64,000 nt of DNA from Clostridia bacterium (lineage in GTDB: Bacteria; Bacillota; Clostridia; JAAYHZ01), in contig JBMNIH010000007.1 in the NCBI GenBank assembly GCA_050950825.1, positions 160,001 through 224,000 on the forward strand, written 5' to 3'. The notes below the pieces were generated by a model. That model saw only the letters and a list, made by a program, of their open reading frames with translations, was not told the DNA's origin and made no database searches. Below are positions 24,008 to 64,000 of this stretch, piece after piece. A program made the position numbers and the translations under genes. Positions within the stretch are counted from its first letter, which is position 1, and each line of letters starts with the position of its first letter.

Positions 24008-24070
24008 AAAGTATCTCAAGCGTTGTTTGCTATAAGTAAATAAAATAAAGCGGAGTAGGAAAGGGCGGCT

Positions 24071-25329: not shown

Positions 25330-25533
25330 TACCGACAACCCCAAAGGGTCGGCTTATTGATATTATATGAGGCCACGCAATCCTATTTACAAAAGAGAAA
25401 AGACACAGTCCGGCTCACTGAAAGCTTAAAGACGTTCCCTCCCGGAAAAGAATGAAAAATCGGCATTGTAGGTAATGCCTTCCATACTATGCCGATTTTT
25501 GTACTATCCAATTGAGGATATTTTATTTTATCG

Positions 25534-27438
25534 TCAAATGGTATTTGCCACTTCAAAGCCTTCCGAGGATGCATCCAAGACTCTTCTCGGAGACAAGGCG
25601 TCTCCTACCGTATACACTTCCTTGAAATGCTTCTTCAATTCTTCCGCTAAGGCCGTGTTGGCTCGATAGCCTACCGCCACCACGATACTGTCTACGGCGA
25701 TGGAGCCGTGTTCCAAAACGACTTTTCCTTTTTCCGCCCCGACTACCTTGGAGTTTAAGTGACTGATTACGCCTTTTTTCGTTAAGAAGGAAAGGTTATG
25801 CCCGATGTATGTGGCACCGTAATCCTTGCCGATGGCGTCAAGCGCTTCCACGATGTGAACGTTTTTGTTTTGTGAACATAAGAACTTCGCCGTTTCCGCT
25901 CCCACCAAGCCGCCGCCGATTACCGCAACGGTATTACCCACTTCTACCTTTTGAGTAAGAACATCCTCCGCCATAACGACATGAGCACCCGGAGCGATGG
26001 GGAAATTAGGAGGTGATTGGGTAGCGCCGGTAGCGACGATGACCACATCCGGATTGTAGGGCTTTAGCTGTTCGGGAGATGTGACGTTAACCAATTCGAA
26101 CTTCACGCCCAACCGGACCATTTGGTTGTAAAGGTAATCTCTGAATTTGATAAAGGTATCTTTTTCGGGAGGAATGGATAAAAGCTCCAATTTTCCTCCG
26201 ATGCGGTCCACCTTATCCAATACGATAACGTCATGGCCTCTTAATTTGGCAATTCTTGCGGCTTCCAAGCCGGCGGGTCCTGCACCGATAATGACCACTT
26301 TCTTTTTGTGTTTTGCCGGGATGACCTTTCTTGTCAATTCGTATCCCGCTCGAGGATTTACCAAGCACTTGGCGCCTTGCCCTATGAATACTTTATCGAT
26401 ACACCCTTGGTTGCAGGCGATGCAGTAGCGGATGGATTTATAATCCTTGTTCTTTATCTTTACTACCAATTCTTCATCGGCAATAAGTCCGCGGCCGATC
26501 GCTACCATATCCGCCTTGCCCGATTCGACGATATCTTCGATTAATTCCGCGCTGTTTAATCGTCCCGCCACGATGACCGGTATTTTCACCTGCTTCTTCA
26601 CTTCTTCGGCATACTTGACCAAGAAGCCTTGGGGGATAAACATGGGCTGAATAATGTATTCCACGCTGTCGTAGCTTGCGGCGGATATACTGATGGCATC
26701 TACGCCAAGTTCTTCCGCCATGATGCATATCTTTTTCGCTTCTTCGAAGGTAAGACCGTCATTCAAAAATTCATCGATACTGATACGTATCGTAACGGGA
26801 ACTTGTCCCTTCACTTCGTCCATAACGGCTTTCAGTACTTGGAAAGGATAACGGGCACGATTTTCCAAGCTGCCTCCGTATTCATCGGTCCTTTTGTTGC
26901 TATGAGGAGATAAAAAGCTGTGCAGCAAATAACCGTGAGCAAAATGTACTTCAATTAAGTCGAAGCCGATATCTACCATACGCCTTGCGCCAATTACAAA
27001 GGCATCTAAAATACGTTTGAAGTCCTCCTTGTTCATTTCTCGAGGATCATTGCCCAAGATGGCACAAGGAATGGCGCTGGGAGCTACCGGTTGAATTCCG
27101 GTAACGGCTTGGGTAGCCTGTCTTCCTGCATGATACAATTGTGCTCCAAACAGAGAACCGGCTTCATGAATTTTGTCAACGAGGGTTTTCATGCCGGGTA
27201 GCAAAGATTCGTCGTAAGAACAAAGCTGAGTCGGAAGGCCTCTGCCTTCGGGAGTTACGGCGATGGAACCGGAGATAATGATACCCACGTCATTCTTGGC
27301 CCTTTCCACAAGAAATGCAGTTATACTGTCGTTAATACCTCCGCCGAATGAAGCATGGCCGTTTTCCATAGGAGCCATCATGAACCTGTTTTTGATCTCG
27401 AGATTTCCGATCTTAATGGGAGTAAATAACTTTCTCAT
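25534..27438 (-). CDS. NADH:flavin oxidoreductase (Old Yellow Enzyme TIM barrel, Fe-S and FAD/NAD domains)
   Basis: QLYHAGRQ, HFAHGYLLHSFLSP, NKRTDEYGGSLENR, CIACNQGC...C cluster, GAGPAGLEAA, GGGLVG. Confidence 0.9.
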   Translation of the reverse strand: MRKLFTPIKIGNLEIKNRFMMAPMENGHASFGGGINDSITAFLVERAKNDVGIIISGSIAVTPEGRGLPTQLCSYDESLLPGMKTLVDKIHEAGSLFGAQLYHAGRQATQAVTGIQPVAPSAIPCAILGNDPREMNKEDFKRILDAFVIGARRMVDIGFDLIEVHFAHGYLLHSFLSPHSNKRTDEYGGSLENRARYPFQVLKAVMDEVKGQVPVTIRISIDEFLNDGLTFEEAKKICIMAEELGVDAISISAASYDSVEYIIQPMFIPQGFLVKYAEEVKKQVKIPVIVAGRLNSAELIEDIVESGKADMVAIGRGLIADEELVVKIKNKDYKSIRYCIACNQGCIDKVFIGQGAKCLVNPRAGYELTRKVIPAKHKKKVVIIGAGPAGLEAARIAKLRGHDVIVLDKVDRIGGKLELLSIPPEKDTFIKFRDYLYNQMVRLGVKFELVNVTSPEQLKPYNPDVVIVATGATQSPPNFPIAPGAHVVMAEDVLTQKVEVGNTVAVIGGGLVGAETAKFLCSQNKNVHIVEALDAIGKDYGATYIGHNLSFLTKKGVISHLNSKVVGAEKGKVVLEHGSIAVDSIVVAVGYRANTALAEELKKHFKEVYTVGDALSPRRVLDASSEGFEVANTI

Positions 27439-46644: not shown

Positions 46645-47073
46645 ATGAAGTCCTACATGGCAAAAGCAGAAAACATCGAACGCAAGTGGTACGTCATCGA
46701 TGCGGAAGGCAAGGTATTAGGTAGATTGGCTTCGGAAGTCGCTCGAATTTTAATCGGTAAACATAAACCTGAATATACTCCTCATGTAGATACCGGTGAT
46801 TATGTCATCGTTATCAATGCGGACAAGATCCAATTGACCGGCAAGAAGTGGGATCAAAAGACCCATAACTATTTTACGGGGTATGTTGGCGGTTATAAAG
46901 AAGTGTCCTACAAGCACTTACTGCAAAAAAATCCCGTTAAGATTATCGAACTTGCCGTAAAAGGCATGCTTCCTAAAAACGCTTTGGGAAGAAAAATGTA
47001 TAAGAAGCTGAAGGTTTATGCAGGAAATGAGCATCCTCATCAAGCCCAACAACCTCAACCTTGGGAAATATGA
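46645..47073 (+). CDS. rplM: 50S ribosomal protein L13
   Basis: [27 protein letters not shown]. Confidence 0.98.
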
Positions 47074-47092
47074 GAAAGGAGGAGTAGCATAA

Positions 47093-47485
47093 ATGGCTAG
47101 TGTACAATATTACGGAACCGGAAGAAGAAAAAAATCGGTAGCACGTGTAAGATTGGTACCGGGAGAAGGAAACTTTGTAATCAATGAACGTTCCTTAGAC
47201 GAATATTTCGGATTGGAAACGCTGAAGGTTATCGTTAAACAGCCTTTGGTTTTGACCAATACGCTGGACCGCTTTGATGTTTTGGTTAACGTAAAAGGAG
47301 GCGGTTTCACGGGTCAAGCGGGCGCTATTCGCCACGGTATTGCAAGAGCTTTGCTGGAAGCCGACGAAGCATACAGACAGCCTTTGAAAAAAGCCGGTTT
47401 CTTGACAAGAGATCCGAGAATGAAGGAAAGAAAGAAATACGGTCTCAAGAAAGCAAGAAGAGCTCCTCAATTCTCAAAGAGATAA
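47093..47485 (+). CDS. rpsI: 30S ribosomal protein S9
   Basis: [41 protein letters not shown]. Confidence 0.98.
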
Positions 47486-47546
47486 AAAATTGTTTCATTA
47501 CACACGAGTTTGTTTACAATTACAAAGTTTGCTTATCGCAAGCGCC

Positions 47547-47583
47547 AACCGTCAGGGGGGAGAATTCCCTTTGGCGGTTTTTT
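47547..47583 (+). terminator. Intrinsic terminator downstream of rpsI
   Basis: AACCGTCAGGGGG...CCCTTTGGCGGTT followed by a T run. Confidence 0.75.
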
Positions 47584-47731
47584 GTTGTGTAAAAAAGCAT
47601 ATAAGAATGTATAAATTATTAAATCCGGACGCAGTTTTAATCCCTCGTAAGCCTGTATAATTCGTATGTGTAGGTGGTTTCGATATTTCCTCCCGTAGGT
47701 TATACCCTGCGTATGAATACTCATTACCTTC

Positions 47732-47938
47732 CACGAGCAAACTTTGTCATTCTTCACTGCTCACGAGCAAACTCGCTTGTCATTTTCTCATTTTTTATAT
47801 CTTTTTTTATATTTTTTAAGGTAATAAAACCCGAGAGCAAACTTTGTCACTACAAGGGAAGAAACAGCGAGAAGCCTTGCAACAACTACATTTCAACACG
47901 AGCAAACTTTGTCACTCCGTGAGCAAACTTATTTGTAA
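47732..47938 (+). repeat. Five direct copies of (CAC)GAGCAAACTTTGTCA
   Basis: 47732-47749, 47762-47782 (3-nt longer variant), 47835-47849, 47897-47914, 47921-47938 (longer variant); inverted copies at 47498-47515 and 47520-47534. Confidence 0.9.
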
Positions 47939-48022
47939 CTACACATAGTAATAAATAAAAAATGAAATAAAAATAAGGGTAAATCTCAGAAAAAAATTTC
48001 AAATAACCAAACGCCAATATTA

Positions 48023-49414
48023 GATAGTGTCTTGTCAAGTGGTGTAAAATGATTTCTACTTTATCTTCCCTTCGTTTCATTTATGTAAGATAGCAATCGG
48101 AGCTAATGAAAACCCATTAGCCTGTGTAAGCTTTTCCATAGATTCTAAACTGAAGTATCGCCGCCCTACCTGCCATTCATCGTTCTGCTCCATAAGCATA
48201 GTACCTACAAGGCGAATAACGGCATCACGATTAGGAAATATGCATACAACATCAGTCCGACGGCGTATCTCACGATTAAGCCGTTCCAATGGATTCGTAG
48301 AATGAATCTGTATCCAATGCTCACGGGGAAAGGCCATATACGCCAATATATCCTCTTCGGCTGCTTCAAGGATTTCCATTGCTTTCGGAAAACGCCCCCT
48401 CAGTTCATCTACCACATGTCTTAGCTGTTCCCTTGCGGATTCCTGATCATTTTGTGCAAAAATGGTGCGTATGATTGAGGAGACCATTCCTTGGCACTTC
48501 TTCGGCACTTGGCTTAATACGTTCCGCATAAAATGTACTCGGCATCTTTGCCATGTGCTCCCGGTTAAAACCTTCTTTATGGCGGATTTTAACCCCTCAT
48601 GGGCATCACTTACAACTAACTTCACCCCTTTAAGTCCCCTTGCTACAAGCTTTCTCAGAAACTCTTCCCAAAAAGCTCCGTCTTCACTCATGCCGACATC
48701 AAAACCTAGTATCTCTCGTTCACCGGACTGATTTACACCTACGGCTATTACAAGTGCCATACTGCATACTCTTCCACCTTCACGAACCTTAGGAAAAGTA
48801 GCATCAAGCCAAAGATAAGGGTATTCTCCTTCGAGTATGCGGTTCTTGAACTCGGTGACAAAGCCATCCAATTGCTTGCTGATCCCGGAAACTTCGCTTT
48901 TATCCATCCCTTTAATTCCGAGAGATTCTACCAACTCATCTACTTTTCTAGTGCTGACACCGTGCACATAAGCTTCCTGCACCACATTTAATAAAGCTTT
49001 TTCTGACATCTTCCGAGGCTCTAATAAACTTGGGAAATAGCTTCCATGCCTCAATTTGGGTATGCTTAACTGTAACGTACCAAGGCGAGTATCCCATTCT
49101 CTTTGTCGGTATCCATTACGATGATTGTTCCGATTCTCACTTCGTTCATACTTTTCCGCACCGATCATCGACGTAACTTCCGCATCCATCAGAGCATTGA
49201 TTAACAGCGTAAGCGCTTCCTTTAAAAAATCCTTATCTTTTTCAACAACATACTTGCTAAGTTGCTCTAAAAGTGACATTCTATTTTTAGTAGCCACGGT
49301 ATGACCTCCTTTACTTTATCTTTTTTGTTTGAATCTAATAAAGTAAAAATCATATCGTGGTTACTCTTGTCAAGCATACTCCACGAAATTTACACCACTA
49401 CTTAAGACTATAAC
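48023..49414 (-). mobile_element. IS256-family insertion sequence (1392 bp)
   Basis: Imperfect 26-bp terminal IRs GATAGTGTCTTGTCAAGTGGTGTAAA and GTTATAGTCTTAAGTAGTGGTGTAAA; single transposase; flanks CAATATTA and TGTAAGCC do not match. Confidence 0.88.
48077..49297 (-). CDS. IS256-family (Mutator-like) DDE transposase
   Basis: RNGYR, GVSTRKV, YLWLDAT, VVSDAHEGL, WQRCRVHF, STNPLERLNREIRRRT; GTG start with AAGGAGG RBS. Confidence 0.96.
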   Translation of the reverse strand: MATKNRMSLLEQLSKYVVEKDKDFLKEALTLLINALMDAEVTSMIGAEKYERSENRNNHRNGYRQREWDTRLGTLQLSIPKLRHGSYFPSLLEPRKMSEKALLNVVQEAYVHGVSTRKVDELVESLGIKGMDKSEVSGISKQLDGFVTEFKNRILEGEYPYLWLDATFPKVREGGRVCSMALVIAVGVNQSGEREILGFDVGMSEDGAFWEEFLRKLVARGLKGVKLVVSDAHEGLKSAIKKVLTGSTWQRCRVHFMRNVLSQVPKKCQGMVSSIIRTIFAQNDQESAREQLRHVVDELRGRFPKAMEILEAAEEDILAYMAFPREHWIQIHSTNPLERLNREIRRRTDVVCIFPNRDAVIRLVGTMLMEQNDEWQVGRRYFSLESMEKLTQANGFSLAPIAILHK

Positions 49415-49743
49415 TGTAAGCCTGTTAGATAGTGGTTAATAACAGTTAAGAACCATTGTTAGTAGTTATTACTGGGTATAAACTGTTAAGGGCTATTAGT
49501 GATAATTATTAACTTTCAATATTGGCGGATATACTGAGATATACTGCCTGCTTAAGCGTAGAGGGAGTTGATTTTCCTAATTATTTTATTCGTGCCGAAA
49601 AAAATCGCTATAGAGGATGACTATGCTATAAATAAAATAATTAAAAGGAACAAAATCAAAAGAAATAGAAAGAAATTGATATAAAATCCCAGTAGGCTAA
49701 TATAGGGCTAAATCAGTATAAATCGGCTAAAATAGACTTTTTT

Positions 49744-49788
49744 AAAATAACCATTTTGTTTATCAACGTACAAAACGGTTATTTTTTT
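49744..49788. terminator. 16-bp inverted repeat, probable bidirectional terminator
   Basis: AAAATAACCATTTTGT...ACAAAACGGTTATTTT with one mismatch. Confidence 0.6.
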
Positions 49789-50083
49789 GACTCAATTTTC
49801 GATGTGCTCCTAAAATATAATGGAAGATTACATCAATGAAAAATCCTATCAAAAATAAATAAAATAGATTTAATGAGGAAAAAGGAAGAAAAAAATTGAA
49901 TAAAGGAGATAAAAAATCTAATCACCTAATAATCGCAGTATATCAAGTTTCTATAAGGGGAGGATTTTATATTAAAGAATTAACTCACAATTAATTCTGG
50001 TTTTTCAATGCATTTATGATTAAATAGTGGTATAATGTTTATATAAAAGAATGGCCACGAGAAAGAGGCGATGATGGTAAAAC

Positions 50084-50680
50084 ATGTTAGAATATAAGTC
50101 AACAATTAAGGCTAGATCTTATCTTTATTTAGAGTTGAAAAAGGCATCAAACCTATACTTACAAGGATTTTCTATAGATGACATAAGACAAAAAGCATTA
50201 GATGAAAATATATTTTCATTAAATTCAGAGAGCAGAATTAAGGAAATTGCTTCAACCGTCTCGGAAAGACTAGAAGCCTTGGATGAAATGTTACTTGATA
50301 AATTAGTAAATGGAAACCTTGAAACAAGCAAACAGGTAGCCCTATATGCTATTTTGAAAACAGACAGGCTTTTTTTTGAGTTCATGCAGGAGGTATATAG
50401 AGATAAATACCTTATAAGAGATTATTTAATTACAGATAAGGATTTTGCTATTTTCTACCAAAGAAAAGCAGAACAAAGTCAAAAAGTGGCAGAGTGGAAA
50501 GATTATACCTTTTATAAATTAAAGCAGGTTTACAAAAGAATCTTAACTGAAGCCGGATTTGTAAAGAAGAATAAAAAAGATGTTGAAATAACCAGACCCT
50601 TAATGGAGCAAGAATTAATAGAACATTTAAATGCAAAAGGTGATGGCATATACCTGCAGGCTATGTTAGGAGGGATATAA
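50084..50680 (+). CDS. brxA: BREX protein BrxA (DUF1819)
   Basis: 198 aa, LFFEFMQEV...W.D.T..KLKQ...LTEAG pattern; first gene of a canonical BREX-1 order. Confidence 0.88.
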   Translation: MLEYKSTIKARSYLYLELKKASNLYLQGFSIDDIRQKALDENIFSLNSESRIKEIASTVSERLEALDEMLLDKLVNGNLETSKQVALYAILKTDRLFFEFMQEVYRDKYLIRDYLITDKDFAIFYQRKAEQSQKVAEWKDYTFYKLKQVYKRILTEAGFVKKNKKDVEITRPLMEQELIEHLNAKGDGIYLQAMLGGI

Positions 50681-51262
50681 ATGAAGACCATTTATGAAAG
50701 GCTTGATGAGATTCTACCTATTATTACAGATAAAAGATTTAGGGAGAACAAAGGATTAGGCAATGAAATAGGCTACTACATTTTTGATTATGATCCTGAA
50801 CATGAAATCATTGTTAGAGAACATATAAAGTTCTTAAAGCAGAAAATAAATAATGATGGCATGGATTTTTCTATTAGAGAAATTGACCTTTATGAAATAA
50901 TGATTGAAATATTAGCGGAAAAGGGATATTTGAAGAAAGTCTTTGAAATGGAGAAGAAAAAAGGTACAGATGCAATCCTTAAGCCTATAAAGAATACTTT
51001 AAGACTCACCCAGAAAAATGATTTAGTTGTAGAGTATATCAGGGAAAGAGTACAGGAAAATGATATTGTTTTCTTAACAGGTGTGGGGAAAATATGGCCA
51101 ATTATCCGATCTCACACTATTTTAAATGTTCTACATTCTGTAATAGATCATATACCTTTAATCATGTTTTATCCTGGGACTTATTCAGGACAAGACTTAA
51201 ATCTTTTTGATGAAATTTCTGACCAAAACTATTATAGGGCTTTTAAACTGGTAGAAAGATAG
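50681..51262 (+). CDS. brxB: BREX protein BrxB (DUF1788)
   Basis: GLGNEIGYYIFDY, LTGVGKIWP.IRSH, MFYPGTY, NYYRAF. Confidence 0.92.
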   Translation: MKTIYERLDEILPIITDKRFRENKGLGNEIGYYIFDYDPEHEIIVREHIKFLKQKINNDGMDFSIREIDLYEIMIEILAEKGYLKKVFEMEKKKGTDAILKPIKNTLRLTQKNDLVVEYIRERVQENDIVFLTGVGKIWPIIRSHTILNVLHSVIDHIPLIMFYPGTYSGQDLNLFDEISDQNYYRAFKLVER

Positions 51263-51278
51263 GGGAGGGAATTGGACT

Positions 51279-54200
51279 ATGAAATTAAAGAAAATGTTTT
51301 ATAAGGAAATTGATAGGGATATTAAGGGCGTTATTAAGATTGGACAAGATGATGATACCAATGTTCACCAAGAGTTGGAGGAATATGTAGTTACTCGAGA
51401 ATTGGCTAGACATTTTAGCACTTTTTTTGAGGCCTACAGAGAAGCGATTAATAATTATACTGACAAAATGGGAGTCTGGATATCAGGATTCTTTGGTTCT
51501 GGTAAATCCCATTTCTTAAAGATTTTATCTTATCTTCTTGAGAATAAAGAGGTAAAGGGTAAACGTGCTATATCCTATTTTGACGATAAAATAGAGGATG
51601 CTTCCGTTTTAGCAGATATGAAAGCCTCAGGGGATGTAAGTGCCGATGTTATTTTATTTAACATAGATTCAAAAGCCGATTCAGATTCTAGAACTAATAA
51701 GGAATCAATAGTTAATGTATTCAATAAAGTGTTCAATGAAATGCAAGGTTTCTGCGGATCTTTGCCATGGCTTGCAGATCTTGAAGCACAAATGGTTAAA
51801 GAAGGTTCTTATGAAGCCTTTAAGTCAAGATTTGAGGAATTATCAGGGGAATCATGGATTGAAGCAAGAGAAGATTTTTATTTTGAAGAAGATAATATAG
51901 TTCAGGCACTGGCAGATACAACTAAAATGAGTATAGAAGCAGCCCGAAATTGGTACAACAAGGCTGAAGATAACTACTCTTTAAGTGTTGAAAAGTTCGC
52001 TAACAAAGTAAAAGAATATATTGAGTCCAAGGACAGAGAGCACCATGTCATCTTTTTGGTGGATGAGATGGGTCAATACATAGGGGATGATGTAGGTTTA
52101 ATGCTTAACCTGCAGACAGTTGTTGAAGATTTAGGAACTTATTGTGGGGGTAAAGCGTGGGTTATTGTAACCTCACAGCAAGATATAGATACTGTTACGA
52201 AGGTAAGGGGTAATGACTTTTCTAAAATCCAAGGTAGATTTAATACAAGGCTTAGTTTATCCAGTGCCAACGTGGATGAAGTAATTAAAAGGAGAATCCT
52301 TTATAAAAACGAAACCGCTAAAGAGACTTTAAAACTCTACTATGCAGACAAGGAAGCAATTATAAAAAACCTTATTACCTTTTCTGCTGATACACCGGAA
52401 ATGAAAATCTTCAAAACAGCAGAAGACTTTATAGATGTGTATCCCTTTATACCTTATCAATTTAGATTGCTGCAGTCTGTTTTTACAGCAATTAGACAGC
52501 ATGGTGCTAGTGGAAAACATCTTTCAGAAGGAGAGAGGTCTCTTTTATCTGCATTTCAAGAGGCTGCTATCAAATATATGGATAAAGAAGTGGGAGCATT
52601 AGTACCATTTTCCGCATTCTACGAAACTATAGAGACTTTCTTGGATCATAATATCAAGACAGTTTTTATTCATGCAGAAGATAACGATAGGCTCAGTAGT
52701 ATGGATGTAGAAGTACTGAAGGTCCTATTTTTAATAAAATGGGTAAAAGAAATGCCAAAGAACTTGGAAAACATTGCAACATTAATGGTTTCACATATTG
52801 ACGAAGACAAAATTGAATTAAAGAAAAAAATAGAAGCCTCTTTAGACAGGCTTGTAAAAGAGACACTGGTTCAGAAAAATGGAAATGAATATATCTTCTT
52901 AACTCATGAAGAACAGGACGTAAATAAAGAAATACAGAATATTTCAATTGATATCAGTGAAATAATACTGAAGATTGGTGAGGAAATATACACAGGAATT
53001 TACAGTGAAAAGAAGTTTCGCTATAACGTTAGATACCATTTTGATTTTAACAAAATCATAGACGATAGGTATATGTCCTCCCAAAAACACGATATAGGAG
53101 TAAAAATAATTACCCCTTATTATGATACTGGTGTTGAACTTACTGACCATGAATTAAGAATGATGTCAGCCAGAGAGAATAATCTAATAATCAAACTACC
53201 TCAAGATACTTCTTTCCTTGAAGAGATGGAGAATATATTAAAGATACAGACCTACCTTACAAGGAAAGCAGGGACTATACAAACGGAAGAAATTGAGGAA
53301 ATAAAGATACGAAAATCAAGAGAAGTTGCTGAGAGAAAGGACAGAGTTGTATCCTTACTTAAGGAAGCATTGCAAGAAGCAGACTTCTATGTAAATATGC
53401 AAAAAATTGATATAAAATCAAAAAATCCTGTTGAAAGAATAAACAGTGGGTTGAAAATACTTATTGAAAATATCTATGACAAGTTAAACTATATTACTGA
53501 TTTTATTGAAAGCACCAAAGAACTTCATGACCTGCTGTTTGATGAAAATACTCAGATAAATATATTTGGGGAAGAAGAAATCCCAAACAAACTAGCCATA
53601 GATGAGATGCTCCACTATATCGAAAGAAACACCCAACGGCATATTCCTGTAACTATGAAAACTCTATTGGAACTATATGATAAACCGCCTTATGGCTGGC
53701 TGCCAGATGATATCAGGGGGCTAGTGATTAGATTATTTAGAGCACAGGAAATTAAGATACAATTAGGTAGCGAATATATTAATCCTTCGGATAAAAACCT
53801 AATCCAATATATGACGAAAAAAGATTATATAGATAGATTGCTAATAAAGAAAAGAACTAAAACCCCTGAAAAGTATTTGAATAATGCCAGGATGTTGATT
53901 AGAGAAGTTTTCAATTATGCATCAGTGCCAGGGGATGAAGATGGATTAATGATTCGTTTCAAGGAGTTATCTAACTATGAATTATCAAATATAAGAGAAC
54001 TATTAGTCCGTTATGAAGAGAGAAACTATCCCGGCAAAGATGTGTTAGAAAGAGGCAAGAGTCTTTTCGAGGACATTTTGCAGATTAGTGATGCTACAGC
54101 CTTCTTTGAAAAACTATATGAAGTAAAAGAAGAATTAATGGACTATGAGGAAGAAGTTTTTGACGTTAAAAAATTCTTTAAAAACCAAAAAGAGCAGTTT

Positions 54201-54833
54201 GATAAAGCCCTTAAACAACTCAATATATATGAAAAGAACAAAACCTATGTTTTAGATCCGGAGACTATAAATATCGTTAAGGAAATAGAAACAATAGTTA
54301 AATCACCAAAACCATATAATCAGATTTCAAAACTGCCTAGCCTAATAAATGACTTTGTTGACAAATTTGTTATGTTGTTAGAAGAAGAGTGCAAACCTGT
54401 AAGGGCTGTGATAGAAAGTGATTGGAACAAGGTTAAGGATGAACTTGAATTATATGATTTTAAGGATGAATTGGCAGGTGCGTTTAACAATAAGTTTAGG
54501 GATCTTTTGGTCAGATTAGATTCATCCCACAATTTCTATGAAGCCATCGCCATGAAGGAAGAGTCAGATAGGCTGAAAATGAGATGTTTTGAGGAAATTA
54601 AAAAAACTGCCTTGGAAAAGAGAAAAAAAAGGGACAGTGAAAAACAACCAGTTACCACTAGGGAAGGCAATGGAGTTTATGTTACCAAAAAAACAGTCAA
54701 TATAAGCATAGCAAATATATTCCATGGAGCAAAAACCATTGAAAGTGAAGAAGATATAGAAGAATTACTTGATTATTTAAGAAAGCAATTAAAAACGGAA
54801 CTAAAGGAGAATACCATATTGAAATTAATTTAA
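51279..54833 (+). CDS. brxC: BREX P-loop ATPase BrxC
   Basis: ELEEYVVT, WISGFFGSGKSHFLK, LVDEMGQY, FSKIQGRF, YPFIPYQ. Confidence 0.94.
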   Translation: MKLKKMFYKEIDRDIKGVIKIGQDDDTNVHQELEEYVVTRELARHFSTFFEAYREAINNYTDKMGVWISGFFGSGKSHFLKILSYLLENKEVKGKRAISYFDDKIEDASVLADMKASGDVSADVILFNIDSKADSDSRTNKESIVNVFNKVFNEMQGFCGSLPWLADLEAQMVKEGSYEAFKSRFEELSGESWIEAREDFYFEEDNIVQALADTTKMSIEAARNWYNKAEDNYSLSVEKFANKVKEYIESKDREHHVIFLVDEMGQYIGDDVGLMLNLQTVVEDLGTYCGGKAWVIVTSQQDIDTVTKVRGNDFSKIQGRFNTRLSLSSANVDEVIKRRILYKNETAKETLKLYYADKEAIIKNLITFSADTPEMKIFKTAEDFIDVYPFIPYQFRLLQSVFTAIRQHGASGKHLSEGERSLLSAFQEAAIKYMDKEVGALVPFSAFYETIETFLDHNIKTVFIHAEDNDRLSSMDVEVLKVLFLIKWVKEMPKNLENIATLMVSHIDEDKIELKKKIEASLDRLVKETLVQKNGNEYIFLTHEEQDVNKEIQNISIDISEIILKIGEEIYTGIYSEKKFRYNVRYHFDFNKIIDDRYMSSQKHDIGVKIITPYYDTGVELTDHELRMMSARENNLIIKLPQDTSFLEEMENILKIQTYLTRKAGTIQTEEIEEIKIRKSREVAERKDRVVSLLKEALQEADFYVNMQKIDIKSKNPVERINSGLKILIENIYDKLNYITDFIESTKELHDLLFDENTQINIFGEEEIPNKLAIDEMLHYIERNTQRHIPVTMKTLLELYDKPPYGWLPDDIRGLVIRLFRAQEIKIQLGSEYINPSDKNLIQYMTKKDYIDRLLIKKRTKTPEKYLNNARMLIREVFNYASVPGDEDGLMIRFKELSNYELSNIRELLVRYEERNYPGKDVLERGKSLFEDILQISDATAFFEKLYEVKEELMDYEEEVFDVKKFFKNQKEQFDKALKQLNIYEKNKTYVLDPETINIVKEIETIVKSPKPYNQISKLPSLINDFVDKFVMLLEEECKPVRAVIESDWNKVKDELELYDFKDELAGAFNNKFRDLLVRLDSSHNFYEAIAMKEESDRLKMRCFEEIKKTALEKRKKRDSEKQPVTTREGNGVYVTKKTVNISIANIFHGAKTIESEEDIEELLDYLRKQLKTELKENTILKLI

Positions 54834-54850
54834 GTTGAGGAGGGGATATA

Positions 54851-57800
54851 GTGGATAAAACAGCCATTAGAAACTTTGCGGTAAAAGCAAGGCGTAAACT
54901 AATAGAAGATATAACCCATAAGGCCTATGAGATAGGGATAACAAAAGATAAAATCTTAGATATTGAAACCTTTGAGGGTGGTTTTAGAGTAAAGGGTAGA
55001 GAAAACGGCAAAACCTTTAAGAAATATGAATTAAAGCAGCGTAATAAGTTGATTCAAAATATTAAACATAAAGGCTTTGAGCAAGTTATAGAAGAGGTTG
55101 CCTATACATGGTTTAACCGTTTTATTGCTCTGCGTTTTATGGAAGTTAACAACTATCTTCCTACTGGGGTTAGGGTATTATCCTCAATAGAAGAAGGTAA
55201 GACTGAGCCTGATATTATCCAAGAGGCTCTAAACATAGACTTAGATCTTGATCCTGAAATAGTGTATAGACTTCAAGACAGTAACGATACAGAGGATTTA
55301 TATAGATATTTGTTAGTTAAGCAATGCAATCAATTAGGAAAAATTATGCCTAATGTTTTTGAGGAAATCGCTGATTATACAGAATTACTCCTTCCTGACA
55401 AACTTCTTGCTGAAGGTTCTGTAATTAGAGATTTAGTGGAAGAAATAGAGGAATATGATTGGAAAATAGAACTGAATGAGGAAGAACAGAAGCGGGAACC
55501 AGAAAAGGGAGAACACGGTATAGAAATTATTGGTTGGCTATATCAGTATTATATTTCTGAAAAGAAAGACGAAGTTTTTGCTGGCCTTAAAAAGAATAAG
55601 AAGATTACCAAGGAAAATATTCCTGCTGCCACCCAACTCTTTACACCTAAATGGATAGTAAAGTATATGGTAGAGAATTCATTAGGCAGGCTATGGCTGG
55701 AATCTCATCCAAATGATCAATTAAAGGCTCAATGGAAATATTATTTGAAAGAAGCCGAACAAGAACCGGAAGTTCAAAAACAATTAGATGCACTCAAAGA
55801 CCCCAACTTAAATCCAGAAGATATTAAGGTATTGGATCCTGCCATGGGTAGTGGCCATATTTTAGTTTATGCTTTTGATGTTCTATATGAAATATACCTA
55901 TCTACAGGTTATTCAGAAAGGGAAATACCCACTCTTATATTGGAAAAAAACCTTTATGGTCTTGATATAGACGATCGTGCAGGCCAATTAGCCACTTTTG
56001 CCATTTTAATGAAGGCAAGAAGTAAAAATAGAAGGATTTTTAGACACAAATCAAGGATGAACTTGTGCTCCATTCAGGAAAGTAACCATATTCCTAAAGA
56101 GGCTATCGAATATTTGGTTAATCCAAAAGAGACTGAACTAGAAAAACATATTCACAGGGAGGACGTTGAATACCTAATAGAAGTTTTTCATGATGCAAAA
56201 GAATATGGCTCAATTTTAGATGTGAAAAAAATAGATTTTGACGCTTTAGAAAAAAGGATTGAAGAGATAAGGAATAATGTTCCAGAAGACCTATTTGAAC
56301 TGCAATATAGAGAGATAATATTAGAAAAAATTCCACCATTGATTCAACAGGCAAAGATAATGAGTCAAAAATATGATGTTGTGTGTACAAATCCGCCGTA
56401 TATGGGGAATAGGGGGATGAATTCTAAACTATCAAAATACATAGGTCAACATTTTCCAAACACAAAAACTGATTTTTTCGCAGTATTTATAGAAGTATGT
56501 GGTGCTTATACACGAGCCAGGGGATTGTTTTCATTGATTACACAGCCTACATGGTTGTTTTTAAGTGCTTTTGAAAAATTAAGAAAAAGTATAATTGAAA
56601 ACAAGTCTATTTGTAGTCTTCTACACATAGGGAGAGGTATTTTTGGAATAGATTGGGGATCAGTTGCCTTTACATTAAGAAACATACTGGTAAATAATTA
56701 TTATGGTCAATATTTTAGGCTACATACGAGGCTATTCCAGTATATAGATCCAAATGATATAAAAGACTTGTTTTTAAAAGCCAAGAATGACCATAGTTTT
56801 AAATTCAATTTTGATAACTATGGAAACAATTCTGAATTATTTAATGATGGCAAATTAAGAATGATAGGTGACTGCAATGGTCAAAAAATACACTACATTT
56901 ATAATCAAGAAAACTTTAAGTTAATTCCAGGATACCCTATTGCGTATTGGGCAAATTCTAACCTACTTGATGCATTTAGATCTAAAAAAATTATATCTAA
57001 AATTGCCATACCAAGAACAGGTATTATGACTGGAGATAATGCTAGATTTTTACGATTATGGTGGGAGCCTTACTATGGTAAATTAAACTTGGATGCAAAA
57101 GACTATGAAAGTGCGATAAAATCAAAATTAAAATGGTATCCATATAACAAGGGGGGAGATTTTAGGAGATGGTATGGAAATAATGAATATGTAGTTAATT
57201 GGGAAAATGGAGGATATGAAATATTTGGGTGTGCAAAATTAGATAGCCGAAACTCACAGGACTATCCAAACGAACTTAAATTTAAAAGGGCAATTTCATG
57301 GGCACTAGTATCATCTAAGAAACCATCTTTTAGAATAATCAATAACAGTTTATCAGATATTGGTGGGCCTTCCTTGTTTGTAAGTAGTAATAATTTATAT
57401 TATATTTTGGCATTTTGTAATTCATTAATAGCCATAGAAATATTAAATATATTAAATCCAACAGTAAACTTTCAAGCAGGGAATATAGGAAATTTACCAA
57501 TAATTTTAAATAAGGACAATTTTCATGTTGTTACTTCAAATGCTATGCAGAATATAAGAATTTCACAACAAGACTGGGATTCTTTTGAAACCTCATGGGA
57601 TTTCAAAGTACACCCATTAGCAAACTTTAATAAGTACATGGATAATTATTATGATACCTTATTAGAATCAGGTATATTGGCTGATAAGGAGCCTATATAT
57701 GTAGCCAATTTGGAACATGCCTATGAACAATATAAAGAATTTACTGAGGTTCAATTCAACCAACTTAAATCCAACGAAGAAGAACTAAACCGTATTTTCA

Positions 57801-58740
57801 TTGAAATCTATGGTCTCCAGGACGAACTAACTCCTGATGTAGATGACAAAGACGTAACTATTACAAGGATATATGATTCTAAAGAAGATATCCCAGAGTG
57901 TATGAAGGGAAATAAATATGTACTTACAAGGGAAGATGTAATAAAATCCTTTATCTCTTATGCTGTTGGCTGTATGTTTGGACGCTACTCTTTAGATGAA
58001 GAAGGTCTAATCTATGCTGGTGGAGATTTTGATGACAAGTTTAGGTTGCGTGATGGACAATGGGAGATTAAGACTAAAGAAGGTTGGAAAAAGTCGATCG
58101 ATAAACATAGTAGAACATAATGTTATTCCTATTGCTGATGGAGATTATTTTGAAGATGGTATACTGGAGCGTTTTGTAGACTTTGTAAAGGTATCTTTTG
58201 GTGAAGAAACATTGGAGGAGAATCTAGATTACATTGCTGAAACTTTAGGTAGGAAGGCCAATGAAACTTCAAGACAGGCTATTAGAAGATACTTCTTAAA
58301 AGATTTCTATAAAGACCATGTAAGAACATATAAAAGTCGTCCTATTTACTGGCTCTTTGATAGTGGAAGACAGGACGGGTTTAAAGCCCTTATTTACATG
58401 CACCGTTACGAGCCTTCTACTGTTGCAAGGGTGAGGACCGATTATTTGCATAGTTTGCAGAAAAAGTATGAAGCAGAAATAAACCATCTTGATATTTTAA
58501 TAGATTCGGATATCTCTCAAAGGGAAAAGGCTGCTGCAAGGAAAAAGAAAGAGACAATTTTAAAGCAGATTGAGGAATGCAGGATTATATGATGAGGCTA
58601 TAGCCCATGTGGCCAATCAAAGAATTGAGATTGATTTAGATGATGGCGTAAAAGTTAATTATGCTAAATTCCAAGGGGTTGAGATTCCTCAAGGTAAAGG
58701 CAGAAAGCCACTAAAAGCAGATTTATTAGCAAAGATATAA
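54851..58740 (+). CDS. pglX: BREX adenine methyltransferase PglX (BrxX), split by two apparent frameshifts near 58097 and 58587
   Basis: [31 protein letters not shown]; continues [11 protein letters not shown]...RPIYW, then [28 protein letters not shown] to TAA at 58740. Confidence 0.9.
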
Positions 58741-58753
58741 AGTAGGTGAACAT

Positions 58754-61309
58754 ATGAATTTTTTAGAAGTTAAAAAGAGGTTAGAGGAAATCTTTAATAA
58801 AGAACCTATGGATGGGAAAAAGAGACATATAGTTTTTTGGTATGATGATGAGGGAGAATTCATTGAAGACATTAACGAACTTAAACTAGATAATGCCAAG
58901 ATTCTCAAACTTGCTGATAATAATTCTTTCTATATAAAGTATCTTCTTGAAAAAGAAGATATTGAATCTAATTATCTTTTATATTCTCCTTCATCTAAAC
59001 CAATACCACGGGATAATTGGGTGTTGGATATTCTGAAATATAGTGAGGAGTTTTCAACTGACAAGGCAACTTTAATTATGAGGGACTTCAAGGTGGAAGA
59101 TCCCTCATTAAGAAATGTGTTTAAGGGATATTTAAAGTTCTTTGGAAATAAAGAGAGATATAAAAAATTTGCCTCATACAATATAGATAAATTTACTAAA
59201 GAAAAGGTAGATATAGCAGTTCTATCTGCTCTACGCAGATTACCCGTAGCAGATTTTGAACAAGTTGTAAAAAAGATTCTGATTGAAGAATTAGAAGGAG
59301 AGAACAAATATCTAGAGGCTATTGAGAACGTTGGTAATATAGATGCCTTTTGGGATTTAGTTGAGAAAAGATATGGTTATAATTTCGAGGAGAGATCATT
59401 AGAAAAATTAACGATTATGCTTCTTGTTACTCATTTATCCTATACTCTCGAAGAGGATATGCCAACTACATGGGTAGAGTATGTATCTCCTAAAAGATCA
59501 GATTCTGTAGTGTTTATAAGTAATTTTATGAATCATGCTACCGACGGTAAATACTATGATTTATTGGCGGATAAAGTCCAAGAGACATTAAATGTAAGAG
59601 TGTATTTAAATAAATGGGATATAGATAAGTATATTGAATGTGATACATTTAGGGCTTTTGATGAAGCAATAATGGAAAGGATAATTGGCAACTTAGTAGA
59701 AGGTGTCGGAGAATTTGAAAGATACCGTAAACTGATTAATAGAAGAAGGACAAGTCATTGGTTTAAAACCTATAGAAACGAATATGAAGCCCTATATTTT
59801 GCTAATGAACTCCTTGAAATGGAAAAGAGAATGGGTGGAGTTATTAGAGGTGGATCTGCCTATGATTTGATCAATGCTTATGTTAAAGAATATTATCTGT
59901 TTGATTATTTCTATCGGAAGTTTTATTACTATTACGATAAAATTACTGACAAAGATCCATTTGAAAAACTAGCAGAGAGAATTGAAAACACCTATACTCA
60001 CTGGTATCTAAACGAACTTTCAATAAAATGGTCTGCAGCGGTTCAGGAGGAATTACTAGAAGACTACTCTTTGGCAGGTATTAGGCAGCAAAAAGATTTT
60101 TATAAAGACTTTGTTTTGCCATTTATAAGGAATAATGAAAGATTATTTGTAATTATTTCTGATGCTTTAAGATATGAAGCAGCAAGAGAACTCCTTAATC
60201 TAATTAATAAAGAGGTGAGGGGTATGGCAGAGATTGGCTTTATGCAAGGAGTCATCCCTTCAAATACAAAATATGGTATGGCAAGTTTGCTTCCAAGAAA
60301 GGAATTGGTAGTCAATGATAAATCAGATATTATTATTGACGGTATAAGCACCCAGGGGACAGTAAATAGGGGGAAAATAATCGCCAATTATAGTGATAAT
60401 GCTCAGGCAATATCATTTAGTGACATGGTAGATATGCGTAGGGCAGATTACAAGAAAGCCTTTGAAGGGAAAAAACTAATTTATATATACCATGACACAA
60501 TAGATGCCGTTGGGGAAGTGCCTCAGACGGAAAGAGAGGTTTTTGATGCCGTAGAAAAGGGTTTTGAAGATTTAGTATCGCTAATCAAAAACCTAATAAA
60601 CCATGTAAGTGCTACAAACATAATAATTACTGCAGATCATGGTTTCATATACAGACGTTCTCAATTAACAGAAGTAGACAAGATTAGCAGATTTAATGCT
60701 GAAACCATAGATGCCGGCAGGAGATATATGCTTGCAGAAATTGATGAAGATATTCCAGATACATTACCTATTTCTATGAAATATCTTTTGGGACAGGAGA
60801 CAAAATTAAAAGCCATTGTTCCAAAAGGCATGATTAGATACAAGGTTCAAGGGGCAGGAGCAAATTATGTCCATGGAGGAGCATCTTTGCAGGAGATAAT
60901 TGTTCCTGTAATAAGATTTAAGAATATCCGTAAAGATGAGTATAAAGCCACTAAGGTCGAAGTGAAGTTAACCAATATTTCAAGGAAGATTACAAATAGA
61001 ATCACCTATTTGGAGTTTTTCCAAACAGAAGTGGTAGACGAAAAGAAAGTGCCATTAAAACTAAAACTTTATTTTGTAGATAAAGAAGGTAACCGTATCT
61101 CTAATGAAAACATTATAATTGCTGATAGTAGGTCGAAAAATCCTGAGGATCGAACCTTTAGGGAGAAGTTTACATTAAGAGATATGGCTTATGACAAGAA
61201 CAAGGAATATTATTTAATTTTAGAAGATGAAGATGAAACCGTAGAAAAAATATATGAGCGAATACCTTTTAAGATAGATTTGCTATTTACAGATGACTTT
61301 GGTTTATAG
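58754..61309 (+). CDS. pglZ: BREX PglZ (alkaline-phosphatase superfamily)
   Basis: IVFWYD, VIISDALRYE, GMASLLP, ITADHGF, YVHGGASLQE. Confidence 0.94.
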   Translation: MNFLEVKKRLEEIFNKEPMDGKKRHIVFWYDDEGEFIEDINELKLDNAKILKLADNNSFYIKYLLEKEDIESNYLLYSPSSKPIPRDNWVLDILKYSEEFSTDKATLIMRDFKVEDPSLRNVFKGYLKFFGNKERYKKFASYNIDKFTKEKVDIAVLSALRRLPVADFEQVVKKILIEELEGENKYLEAIENVGNIDAFWDLVEKRYGYNFEERSLEKLTIMLLVTHLSYTLEEDMPTTWVEYVSPKRSDSVVFISNFMNHATDGKYYDLLADKVQETLNVRVYLNKWDIDKYIECDTFRAFDEAIMERIIGNLVEGVGEFERYRKLINRRRTSHWFKTYRNEYEALYFANELLEMEKRMGGVIRGGSAYDLINAYVKEYYLFDYFYRKFYYYYDKITDKDPFEKLAERIENTYTHWYLNELSIKWSAAVQEELLEDYSLAGIRQQKDFYKDFVLPFIRNNERLFVIISDALRYEAARELLNLINKEVRGMAEIGFMQGVIPSNTKYGMASLLPRKELVVNDKSDIIIDGISTQGTVNRGKIIANYSDNAQAISFSDMVDMRRADYKKAFEGKKLIYIYHDTIDAVGEVPQTEREVFDAVEKGFEDLVSLIKNLINHVSATNIIITADHGFIYRRSQLTEVDKISRFNAETIDAGRRYMLAEIDEDIPDTLPISMKYLLGQETKLKAIVPKGMIRYKVQGAGANYVHGGASLQEIIVPVIRFKNIRKDEYKATKVEVKLTNISRKITNRITYLEFFQTEVVDEKKVPLKLKLYFVDKEGNRISNENIIIADSRSKNPEDRTFREKFTLRDMAYDKNKEYYLILEDEDETVEKIYERIPFKIDLLFTDDFGL

Positions 61310-61333
61310 AATTACAAAGGTGGTGAAAAGGCA

Positions 61334-63376
61334 GTGGACAGGGAGAATAGAGATTTAAATGAAAAATTGAACAAATATTTTCCAGGCAGAGTTGTCCGTA
61401 AGGATTTGACTCAAAAAATAAAGGAAGGGGCCAATGTACCAGTATATGTCCTTGAATATTTACTTGGTATGTACTGTGCTACTGATGATGAAGATTCCAT
61501 AAATGAAGGAGTAAATAGAGTAAAAGCAATACTTGCAGAAAATTATGTAAGGCCCGATGAAGCGGAAAAGATTAAATCTAAAATTCGAGAATTAGGCCAG
61601 TATACAGTTATTGATAAACTGACAGTAAGGCTAAATGAAAAAAGAGACATTTATGAGGCGGAGTTTTCTAATTTAGGGTTAAAAGGTGTAGAAGTAGAAG
61701 CAGATTATGTTAAAAAATTTGAGAAACTTCTTGCTGGAGGTATATGGTGTATTCTTAAAATACAATACTATTATGATGAAGAGTTAAGAAATGCTAACCC
61801 TTTTATCATAAATAGTTTGAAGCCCATCCAAATTCCAAACTTGGATATGGATGAGATATTGAATGGAAGAAAACATTTCACCAAAGATGAATGGATTGAT
61901 ATCCTTTTAAGATCCGTGGGCATGGAACCTACACAATTGGAGGAAAAAGTTAAGTGGCACCTTCTTGCTCGCATGATTCCTCTTGTTGAGAATAATTATA
62001 ATCTTTGTGAGTTAGGGCCAAGAGGGACAGGTAAATCACATATATATAAGGAAATATCACCTAACTCTATTCTAATATCCGGTGGGCAAACTACTGTAGC
62101 CAATTTATTTTACAATATGAATACCAGAAAAATCGGATTAGTTGGCTTATGGGATGTAGTAGCATTTGATGAAGTGGCTGGAATTACCTTTAAAGATAAA
62201 GACGGCATTCAGATTATGAAGGATTATATGGCTTCAGGCTCATTTGCCAGAGGAAAAGAATTAAAAAATGCTTCTGCTTCTATGGTTTTTGTTGGTAATA
62301 TCAATCAATCAGTGGACGTTCTTTTAAAAACATCCCATTTATTTGAACCATTCCCAGAAGCAATGGCTTATGACACGGCTTTTTTTGACAGGATGCACTG
62401 TTATATTCCCGGCTGGGAGATACCTAAATACAGACCGGATTTTTTCACTCACGAATATGGCTTTATTACTGATTATATTGCAGAATTTTTCAGGGAAATG
62501 AGAAAAACATCCTATGGCGACAGCATAGATAAATACTTTAGACTTGGAAATAACCTTAATCAAAGAGATGTTATAGCGGTAAGAAAGACTGTATCGGGAT
62601 TGGTCAAACTAATTTATCCTCATGGAGAATTTAACAAAGAAGATATAGAAGAAATCCTAAGGTATGCCTTAGTTGGAAGAAGACGAGTAAAAGAACAATT
62701 AAAGAAAATTGGTGGTATGGAATTTTATGATGTTCATTTTTCTTACATAGATAATGAAACATTTGAGGAAGAATTTGTATCGGTTCCAGAACAGGGTGGC
62801 GACAAACTGATACCTGAAGGAATGGGAAAACCAGGACATATATACACAGTTGCCCATGGTGATTCAGGGATGATTGGAGTATATAAAATAGAAACCGAGG
62901 TTGTCTCTGGAACAGGAAAATTTGAAAGAACAGGATTGGGGACTAGCAGGGAAGCAAAAGAGAATTTGAATACAGCCTTCAACTATTTTAAAGCAAACAA
63001 AAAGAATATCAGTGGAACAATTTCCTTAAACAATAATGATTTTTTAATGCATGTTCAAGATTTACAGGGAATTGGTATGACTTCTCAATTGACATTAGCA
63101 GCCTTTATTGCCCTTTGTTCTGGAGCATTAAAAAAACCTGTATTAAGTCAATTGGTGGTATTAGGGTCAATGAGCATAGGGGGAACCATTAATAAGGTGG
63201 AGGAACTGGCATCCACACTTCAAGTTTGTTTTGATGCAGGAGCGAAAAAAGTACTCCTACCTATGGCTTCTGCCGCAGACATTAACACAGTTCCGCCAGA
63301 ATTATTCTCTAAATTTCAGATATCCTTTTATCAAAGCCCTGAAGATGCGGTATTTAAAGCATTAGGAGTTGAGTAA
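61334..63376 (+). CDS. brxL: BREX Lon-like AAA+ protein BrxL
   Basis: VVRKDL, ANVPVYVLEYLLG, ELGPRGTGKS, VAFDEV, KDYMASGSFARG; Lon-like C-terminus. Confidence 0.95.
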   Translation: MDRENRDLNEKLNKYFPGRVVRKDLTQKIKEGANVPVYVLEYLLGMYCATDDEDSINEGVNRVKAILAENYVRPDEAEKIKSKIRELGQYTVIDKLTVRLNEKRDIYEAEFSNLGLKGVEVEADYVKKFEKLLAGGIWCILKIQYYYDEELRNANPFIINSLKPIQIPNLDMDEILNGRKHFTKDEWIDILLRSVGMEPTQLEEKVKWHLLARMIPLVENNYNLCELGPRGTGKSHIYKEISPNSILISGGQTTVANLFYNMNTRKIGLVGLWDVVAFDEVAGITFKDKDGIQIMKDYMASGSFARGKELKNASASMVFVGNINQSVDVLLKTSHLFEPFPEAMAYDTAFFDRMHCYIPGWEIPKYRPDFFTHEYGFITDYIAEFFREMRKTSYGDSIDKYFRLGNNLNQRDVIAVRKTVSGLVKLIYPHGEFNKEDIEEILRYALVGRRRVKEQLKKIGGMEFYDVHFSYIDNETFEEEFVSVPEQGGDKLIPEGMGKPGHIYTVAHGDSGMIGVYKIETEVVSGTGKFERTGLGTSREAKENLNTAFNYFKANKKNISGTISLNNNDFLMHVQDLQGIGMTSQLTLAAFIALCSGALKKPVLSQLVVLGSMSIGGTINKVEELASTLQVCFDAGAKKVLLPMASAADINTVPPELFSKFQISFYQSPEDAVFKALGVE

Positions 63377-63416
63377 CATAGATATAAATGGAGTTAAATA
63401 TAGTTTATGCAATATT

Positions 63417-63457
63417 AAAGTCAAAGGCAAAATTTGCCCTTGGCTTTTTATTTTTTG
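63417..63457 (+). terminator. Terminator of BREX operon
   Basis: AAGTCAAAGGCAA...TTGCCCTTGGCTT followed by T runs. Confidence 0.7.
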
Positions 63458-63476: not shown

Positions 63477-64000
63477 TGTCCAAAAACTGATGGAATTGCC
63501 TGTCCAGATATTGCTGGTATATAATGGCCATATACATTCTATAGAAAGAAAAAAGCGTCCTTGTTTCAATGTGATACTGTTACAGCAGTAGCACCAAGGA
63601 CGTCCCCAAACTATGATCATTATATCAAAATATGAACTAGAAGAAAAGGCAGAAGAACAAGTTTTTATGTAAGAAGTTTGGAGCAGTTTCTATGTCCCTG
63701 CTGCAGGAGTAACCGTATGAAGGTTGTAGGGAGCAGGCCCAGGAAGTACCTGCAGGAGGATGCCTCGCAAGTGATATTGATAATACGCAGGCTGCGCTGC
63801 CTGGAATGTAACAAGATACATCACGAATTGCCCGATATACTGGTTCCATACAAACGGTACAAAAGCGAATGCATAGAGACAGTTGTAGCAGAAGATAACA
63901 ACACTCCGCTAGCAATAGCATGTGATGAATCTACGCTATACCGGTGGAAAAAGTGGTTTAACTCTTTAAGCAGGTATTTTGCAGGTTGCTTGCAGTCCAT
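63477..64000 (+). mobile_element. Left end of a probable DUF6431-associated transposable element, truncated by window edge
   Basis: Starts TG; TGTCCAAAAACTGATGG and TGTCCAGATATTGCTGG repeated 24 bp apart; GC content visibly rises; DUF6431-like gene follows. Confidence 0.5.
63613..64000 (+). CDS. DUF6431-like zinc-finger/HTH protein, partial, frameshifted at 63661-63667
   Basis: Manual translation MIIISKYELEEKAEEQVF then FYVRSLEQFLCPCC...IRRLRCLECNKIHHELPDILVPYKRY...DESTLYRWKKWF. Confidence 0.7.

Follow-up and report, generated by a model that had tools for sequence, protein, structure and literature searches.

A gene-less Tn7-type module behind rpsI, very probably the proximal end of a decayed BREX island in a clostridial genome

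In Tn7, TnsD recognises the end of glmS and directs insertion by TnsABC behind the gene, about 25 bp past its stop codon. The gene for ribosomal protein S9, rpsI, appears in excerpts of two reports on Firmicutes as a site of islands that are mobilised by tyrosine integrases (PMC2858755, PMC5341023). As a site for Tn7-type elements rpsI was not named in the literature that we searched: it was not found together with TnsD, nor was TniQ found together with "attachment site" and "ribosomal protein S9", and "Tn7-like" and rpsI co-occurred in one paper, a review on mobile elements of streptococci. Neither "ribosomal protein" nor "rps" appears in the main text of Benler et al., 2021 (PMC8649781) or of Faure et al., 2023 (PMC10293859); their supplementary tables may list rpsI. 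MITEs and Tn3-derived TIMEs (PMC4133298) are miniature non-autonomous elements, and natural miniature derivatives of Tn7 did not turn up in the literature search.

This work concerns a stretch of 64,000 nucleotides from a Clostridia bacterium (assembly GCA_050950825.1, contig JBMNIH010000007.1, positions 160,001 to 224,000), referred to as the window. The segment at 47491-47945 of the window is with high probability a non-autonomous module of the Tn7 family that homes to rpsI in a fixed orientation and constitutes the proximal end of a decayed BREX island. The rpsI gene (47093-47485, plus strand; Pfam Ribosomal_S9, 1.3e-51) ends in TAA and is followed by the 5-nt spacer AAAAT (47486-47490), the would-be left copy of a target duplication, and by a 455-bp mini-element on the plus strand with TGT...ACA termini, just where the first-pass annotation, made from the sequence alone, had placed such a segment. 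The module starts with TGTTTCATTACACACGAGTTTGTTTAC at 47491, ends in ...GTGAGCAAACTTATTTGTAACTACACA at 47945 before TAGTA, and has imperfect inverted termini of about 46 bp. Its rpsI-proximal end (47491-47536, plus strand) consists of the terminal 8-mer TGTTTCAT and two abutting repeat sites, putative TnsB sites, whose units span 47499-47536 and which match our degenerate end pattern at 47499-47531. The distal-type end (47730-47945, minus strand) combines five repeat sites in the opposite orientation with a terminal 8-mer ending ...ACTACACA. The asymmetry noticed earlier, two inverted repeats on the left and five direct ones on the right, is therefore real: the five direct CACGAGCAAACTT-type units (families D1 and D2) start at 47730, 47760, 47830, 47895 and 47916 within the far 215 bp, and the two left copies are inverted relative to them, with arms such as 47518-47533 and 47736-47751 being 94% complementary. 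By analogy with Tn7, these repeats would be bound by TnsB.

The exact 15-mer GAGCAAACTTTGTCA occurs three times within 180 bp. When up to three mismatches are allowed, the whole window holds seven matches against 2.25 expected, a number reached by 2 of 100 shuffles and by itself a weak measure. A scan of the whole 3.55-Mb genome for the GAGCAAACTT-type motif with up to one mismatch gave 154 matches in total, and the module is the sole place where at least three of them cluster within 200 bp. The 455-bp module is present as a single copy in its own genome, and a blastn search of a plasmid collection with 465 bp gave no match.

The module is devoid of a credible gene or coding signal, as had been proposed. 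Neither of its two internal ORFs (82 aa on the plus strand, 74 aa on the minus strand) matches a Pfam family, and comparison with 13 other copies distributes the variable sites evenly over the codon positions (18/20/17 and 22/18/20) and reveals frame-breaking indels of 1, 7 and 10 nt. Rfam searches of 47000-50500 returned nothing beyond two sub-threshold chance matches. The flanks AAAAT and TAGTA do not form a 5-bp target duplication, which had been pointed out as a caveat. The reason lies in TAGTA, which belongs to the beginning of the tnsA leader in a larger element and not to the chromosomal target, and the insertion of the window's own copy is accordingly not directly documented.

Within the proximal end, a terminator scan located an intrinsic terminator (47547-47585, plus strand) that is directed against transcription from rplM-rpsI and comprises a 15-pair stem (47547-47579) followed by a T run. 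The hairpin is kept with 12 pairs in 31 variants, and at one of these pairs a compensatory change has replaced GC by UA in 13 sequences. As the element pushes the native terminator downstream, we infer that the terminator of the proximal end serves to end the rplM-rpsI transcript; it would thus take over termination for the operon and shield the element from read-through. A built-in terminator of this kind would explain how termination is kept when an element lands 5 nt past the end of a ribosomal operon with high expression.

To find related stretches, contigs from one genome per species were scanned with a degenerate pattern that spans the two outermost units of either end. At least 120 were found in diverse Firmicutes. 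The hosts among the matches listed belong to Tissierellia, Peptococcaceae, Desulfitobacteriia, Syntrophomonadaceae, Limnochordia, Thermoanaerobacterales, Oscillospiraceae and others, and most of them are MAGs from digesters or bioreactors. After removal of duplicates and addition of the window, the matches listed amount to 102 distinct near-type and 42 far-type ends, of which 98 and 42, respectively, carry the terminal TGT when read inward. Among these listed matches, 76 of the 102 near-type ends lie 4-8 nt past an rpsI stop codon, always in one orientation, with spacers of 4 nt (19 cases), 5 nt (28), 6 nt (23), 7 nt (4) or 8 nt (2), and not a single one of the 42 far-type ends is found at an rpsI stop. 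The remaining 26 near-type ends are located away from rpsI, six of them directly behind the far-type end of another copy, that is in tandem. Near and far ends pair to complete units in 17 listed cases, 13 of which measure 454-473 bp. The S9 C-terminal peptide encoded next to the insertions is identical or a one- or two-residue variant at 75 of 77 sites. Together with the linkage to tnsABCD genes described below, the position of the 76 listed near-type ends bears out the earlier proposal of a clostridial Tn7-like family that homes to the 3' end of rpsI.

The module has spread horizontally. The copy in the window is 92-98.5% identical to nine full-length copies in genomes whose rpsI genes are just 67-77% identical to the one studied here, and the two closest relatives, G001 from the same genus and G002 from the same family, possess empty rpsI sites with a native terminator straight after the gene. 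Perfect 5-bp duplications surround the solitary mini-elements (minis) L046 (GTTTA/GTTTA) and L137 (ACAAG/ACAAG), which are two of the six solitary minis with non-tns sequence on both flanks; in the others the duplication is preserved in three of five bases (L097), matches only with a one-base shift (L023) or is absent (L042, L034). Other genomes carry up to three minis. Tandem minis stand 4-5 nt apart in L036, L040, L090, L105, L124 and L133, and the spacer is 5 nt long in five of the seven tandem junctions read. Tandem insertion at an occupied site suggests that target immunity is weak or bypassed.

Solo left ends that run into host genes, for example one for a cwlD-type amidase, are common. 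A transposase gene just inside near-type ends with long interiors was considered and dismissed, as the ORFs found there are host genes (cwlD-type amidase, AMMECR1/radical SAM, permeases) or cargo (type I R-M, GmrSD). As only host or cargo ORFs lie inside the near-type ends inspected, many of these ends are solo remnants. The first-pass annotation had regarded repeats behind rpsI in relatives lacking any island as speaking against Tn7-type homing. Such repeats do occur, but as mobile DNA, either as solitary minis with 5-bp duplications or as solo ends. In a Tepidanaerobacter genome (L066, 375-5780), the near-type end at rpsI leads into genes for a type I R-M methylase, a specificity subunit and a GmrSD nuclease, which is another defence cargo at the rpsI site. 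In L110 (1501-4700), a near-type end with about 190 bp of mini is followed by an operon with an ArsR-type regulator and a second near-type end, with no far-type end in that interval; this arrangement shows that recombinant or deleted forms exist.

The transposition genes of the family were reached by searching five mini-bearing genomes in full for the Mu/TnsB C-terminal domain PF09299. A tnsA-tnsB-tnsC-tnsD cluster follows the same module in at least ten genomes or metagenome contigs, so that the expectation of tns genes downstream of rpsI-linked modules proved correct. In L150 (G061), rpsI is followed by two tandem minis, the flank known from the window (TAGTAATAAAT...) and the genes for TnsA (PF08722 and PF08721), TnsB (PF09299), TnsC (AAA_22/TniB) and TnsD (PF15978, 2.7e-59, and TniQ); tnsD is frame-shifted in this assembly and intact, encoding 420 aa, in L192. 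Searches against the PDB matched proteins of the family to Tn7 TnsA (1.3e-34), to Tn7 TnsB over nearly the full length (2.3e-109) and to Tn7 TnsD (1.5e-19). The order rpsI, module, tnsA-B-C-D is realised in L150, G122, G064 and L129 as well as in the metagenome loci L213, L217 and L220. TnsD with at least 65% identity is encoded in three of 400 genomes of the class, among which only G122 provides upstream context; this genome, reached through the TnsD protein, exhibits rpsI, a mini and tnsA-B-C-D. A TnsD-based search of metagenomes yielded 14 loci, and all three with enough upstream DNA show the same succession. A far-type terminus is situated about 150-170 bp before tnsA in all seven metagenome loci that cover the region upstream of tnsA, and the junction ACA|TAGTA is found as in the window in L053, L124, L127, L129, L130 and G122.

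In Tn7 TnsA, E63, D114, Q130 and K132 are active-site residues. In 12 of 14 proteins of the family, the residues aligned to them read Q, T, T and K. As an argument for replicative transposition these residues were discarded, because distant outgroup TnsA proteins lack D in the D114 column, too. In 110 more distant TnsA proteins from Firmicutes (P0011-P0120) this column holds T in 45, N in 21, S in 44 and D in none; the active site of this clade may be a different one, unless the alignment is off at this column.

Comparison with these relatives reveals what has happened to the island in the window. The module is followed by a 77-bp remnant of the tnsA leader (47946-48022, plus strand), which is conserved in relatives from the ACA terminus to tnsA; window positions 47489-48021 are 93.5% identical to L150 4881-5415, where tnsA starts at 5504. 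Next comes a 1392-bp insertion sequence (48023-49414, minus strand) with a transposase ORF at 48077-49297 (Pfam Transposase_mut, 3.5e-137, a family that we take to be IS256). Homology to G122 ends at 48021 and picks up again at 49415, and the skipped part of G122 (18482-25808, 7.3 kb) holds tnsABCD; this block has been deleted from the island. From 49415 on, the DNA shares 93-95% identity with the cargo located behind tnsD in G122 and G064. This cargo (49415-63455, plus strand, assigned by Pfam matches) contains a complete BREX system of six genes at 50084-63376, namely brxA (50084-50680), brxB (50681-51262), brxC (51279-54833), a gene for a pglX-type methylase (54851-58120), pglZ (58754-61309) and brxL (61334-63376). 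Right after brxL, an ORF with a DUF6431 domain (63678-63998) runs off the end of the window.

Homology to the G064 element continues past the window to C7:234544, beside a second copy of the insertion sequence (G000 C7:234662-236053), one of seven full-length copies in the genome. Neither this copy nor the one at 48023-49414 has a target duplication, an absence suggestive of deletions that the IS mediated on either side of the cargo. Synteny with G002 sets in with a gene at C7:248032; between rpsI and this point no far-type end was found, nor was the far boundary of the island found in its own genome. With TnsA, B, C and D of the family, tblastn gave no match in this genome, and profile searches with PF06527, PF09299 and PF08722 gave none either, though their controls were silent everywhere, so that the absence of tns genes rests mainly on tblastn in a genome that is 97% complete. 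The IS transposase gene is the sole protein-coding gene between rpsI and the BREX system. About 19 kb downstream, a tyrosine recombinase known from the distal part of related elements persists as two pieces (G000 C7:226804-229236); these are separated by about 1.6 kb with a 466-aa ORF on the other strand in between. In the G064 element (L155, 7775-13461), the region from BREX to the distal mini holds more cargo of the defence type, namely genes for a protein kinase, for an SF1 helicase and for a CBASS-like pair of SMODS nucleotidyltransferase and 4TM effector.

The proposal of an internally deleted or non-autonomous copy thus holds in that the genome yielded no tns genes, but not as far as a free-standing mini is concerned: judged by its right-hand neighbourhood, the 455-bp unit appears to be the rpsI-proximal end of a dead Tn7-like BREX island. 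For annotation this means that the BREX genes here are the cargo of a dead transposon and not a native locus.

The layout of the autonomous relatives deserves separate consideration. In every tnsA-bearing locus with its upstream region present (L053, L074/G064, L124/G061, L127/G408, L129, G122, L033/G065, L039, L134 and seven metagenome loci), a complete far-type terminus facing rpsI lies between the near-type end and tnsA; in L033, L039 and L134 it adjoins codon 22-25 of tnsA instead of the leader. The canonical Tn7 layout, in which a near-type end leads straight into tnsA, was not encountered in any of these loci. Where the far side was traced (G064, G065, G408 and, over two contigs, G122), the element ends in another complete mini that is oriented like the first, and a tyrosine recombinase gene (Phage_integrase, 2e-29) is conserved near this distal mini. 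The outer 5-nt flanks of the four mini-body-mini units read AATTT/AATTT, CATAT/CATAC, ATTTT/ATATT and TCGGT/GGTGC. Judged from these arrangements, the movable unit looks like a mini, tnsABCD with cargo, and a second mini. Such a mini-backbone-mini structure with an outer 5-bp duplication resembles the cointegrates described in the consulted portions of PMC8188705 and PMC11406308. Within single elements, identity between the proximal and the distal mini amounts to 97.4, 95.2, 89.2 and 80.6%, and a fresh cointegrate with newly replicated duplicates was rejected because the two minis differ by 2.6-19%. A Campbell-type crossover was likewise set aside, as variant blocks alternate in the minis like a mosaic and do not reveal a clean crossover. 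In an outgroup element (G129), no flanking direct repeats of at least 200 bp were found. In L207-L210 (G311 C1:2037448 and 2073369), a 254-bp direct repeat pair of 89% identity brackets a different Tn7-like tns cluster.

The element of G065 is represented by at least 55% of sampled words in 19 public runs from ten studies, and a circular form was not seen in contigs from public runs. One contig joins 4732 to 14570, which fits an element-free allele, and one joins 14447 back to 5100, which fits a circle junction; in both the short side extends for 26-33 nt inside repeated DNA, so that neither joint carries weight. Over L149 4000-16000, the summed contig word depth, which is not a copy number, reached about 1,500-3,200 on the two minis compared to 3-10 on the host flanks (X1, X2) and about 70-560 on the minis in X5 and X11; it also exceeded the depth of tnsA and tnsB.

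As a first guess, the unit may move as a composite by cut-and-paste, the alternative being cycles of cointegrate formation and recombinase action. It is also conceivable, albeit rather unlikely, that the true transposable unit is the 455-bp mini alone and that tns genes, tyrosine recombinase and defence cargo reside outside its ends, between two direct minis. It would then act as an integrative element that arrives at rpsI either in cointegrate form or through recombination with a mini already present there, exits via recombination between its two minis and in each cycle leaves a solitary mini behind rpsI as both footprint and landing pad. The excess of minis that stand alone or in tandem would thereby be explained, as would the missing arrangement of an end followed directly by tnsA. 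If the mini-genes-mini layout reflects the mechanism, defence islands would be carried in a manner that is unusual for a relative of Tn7.

Other origins of the segment must be weighed against the reading as the proximal end of a Tn7-type island. Solitary copies with their own 5-bp duplications and native flanks exist elsewhere (L046, L137), and two IS256-type copies bracket the BREX region here, which would agree with a free-standing, MITE-like insertion next to a BREX island that arrived separately, be it as an IS256 composite or as an integrase-borne island. We consider this improbable, as the unit continues on its right into 77 bp of the conserved tnsA leader, at least six other genomes have the ACA|TAGTA junction with tnsA next to it, the DNA beyond the IS has 95% identity to the post-tnsD cargo of G122 and G064, and the absence of target duplications from both IS copies fits deletion over composite insertion. 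Another explanation takes the repeats to be arm-type or core sites of an integrative element whose tyrosine recombinase would have its attachment site at the 3' end of rpsI. TGT...ACA ends with 5-bp duplications and adjacent tnsABCD genes with strong matches to structurally solved Tn7 proteins make this explanation very improbable; moreover, the recombinase lies far from rpsI, beside the distal module, no integrase gene is present at the attachment site, and tandem units are 5 nt apart instead of being separated by repeated att cores. This is so despite the conserved Phage_integrase match (2e-29) in the distal part of related elements, two pieces of which survive here, and despite the rpsI-linked islands that excerpts of the literature name for enterococci and Macrococcus.

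A native, vertically inherited terminator or regulatory region of rplM-rpsI with sites for a host regulator is hardly credible in view of same-genus and same-family genomes that lack the segment and have terminators of their own. The working-looking terminator in the left part and the frequent solo left ends directly before host genes such as that for the cwlD-type amidase would suit this explanation, yet across families the segment is far more conserved than rpsI, is linked to tns genes and is also present in places other than rpsI (26 of the 102 near-type ends among the matches listed).

If the segment is read as the proximal end of a Tn7-type island, its history can be sketched by analogy with Tn7 at glmS. 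In this family of elements from anaerobic Firmicutes, a selector of the TnsD/TniQ type would presumably read the conserved 3' coding end of rpsI and recruit TnsC and TnsAB, leading to insertion a few bases past the stop codon with a 5-bp duplication. The IS256-type element now occupies the place from which the 7.3-kb tnsA-tnsB-tnsC-tnsD block was lost, the far end of the island is lost as well, and the remnant is an immobile fossil unless transposition proteins are supplied in trans. With this family, rpsI joins the ends of essential genes that serve as safe landing sites for Tn7-type transposons. The less expected parts are the abundance of minis, the built-in terminator and the mini-genes-mini layout; gene-less Tn7-type minis are abundant across bacterial families in digesters and sludge, and surveys of transposons that are based on genes would miss them.

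Among described systems, the tyrosine-integrase islands at rpsI share with the module the chromosomal landmark at which foreign DNA lands but differ in enzyme class and end structure. Replicative relatives of Tn7 (Tn5053, type V-K CAST and TnsA active-site mutants), as portrayed in the excerpts consulted, resemble the family in the cointegrate-like mini-backbone-mini structure and a site-specific recombinase gene in the body; in contrast to Tn5053 and type V-K CAST, the rpsI family has a gene for TnsA, its two minis differ by 2.6-19% and no circle was seen. Like MITEs, TIMEs and laboratory mini-Tn7, the mini is short and gene-less and consists of two transposon ends only, and as with MITEs and TIMEs, solitary copies have target duplications and pairs of units can bracket other DNA. 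It differs from MITEs and TIMEs in being derived from Tn7, in being site-specific rather than dispersed and in occurring once instead of in many copies in its own genome. The closest counterpart is Tn7 itself. Family insertions lie 4-8 nt past the stop of rpsI instead of about 25 bp past that of glmS, and TnsD of the family comprises 420 aa compared to about 500 aa in Tn7. Unlike in Tn7, the proximal end carries a terminator, an inverted far-type end precedes tnsA, placing the tns genes outside the smallest pair of ends, and tandem insertions are common, which would speak against strong target immunity. Common to both are TGT...ACA ends with several repeat sites in an arrangement that differs from one end to the other, a 5-bp duplication in the family, orientation-specific insertion just behind a conserved essential gene that stays intact, and the gene order tnsA-tnsB-tnsC-tnsD reading away from the target gene.
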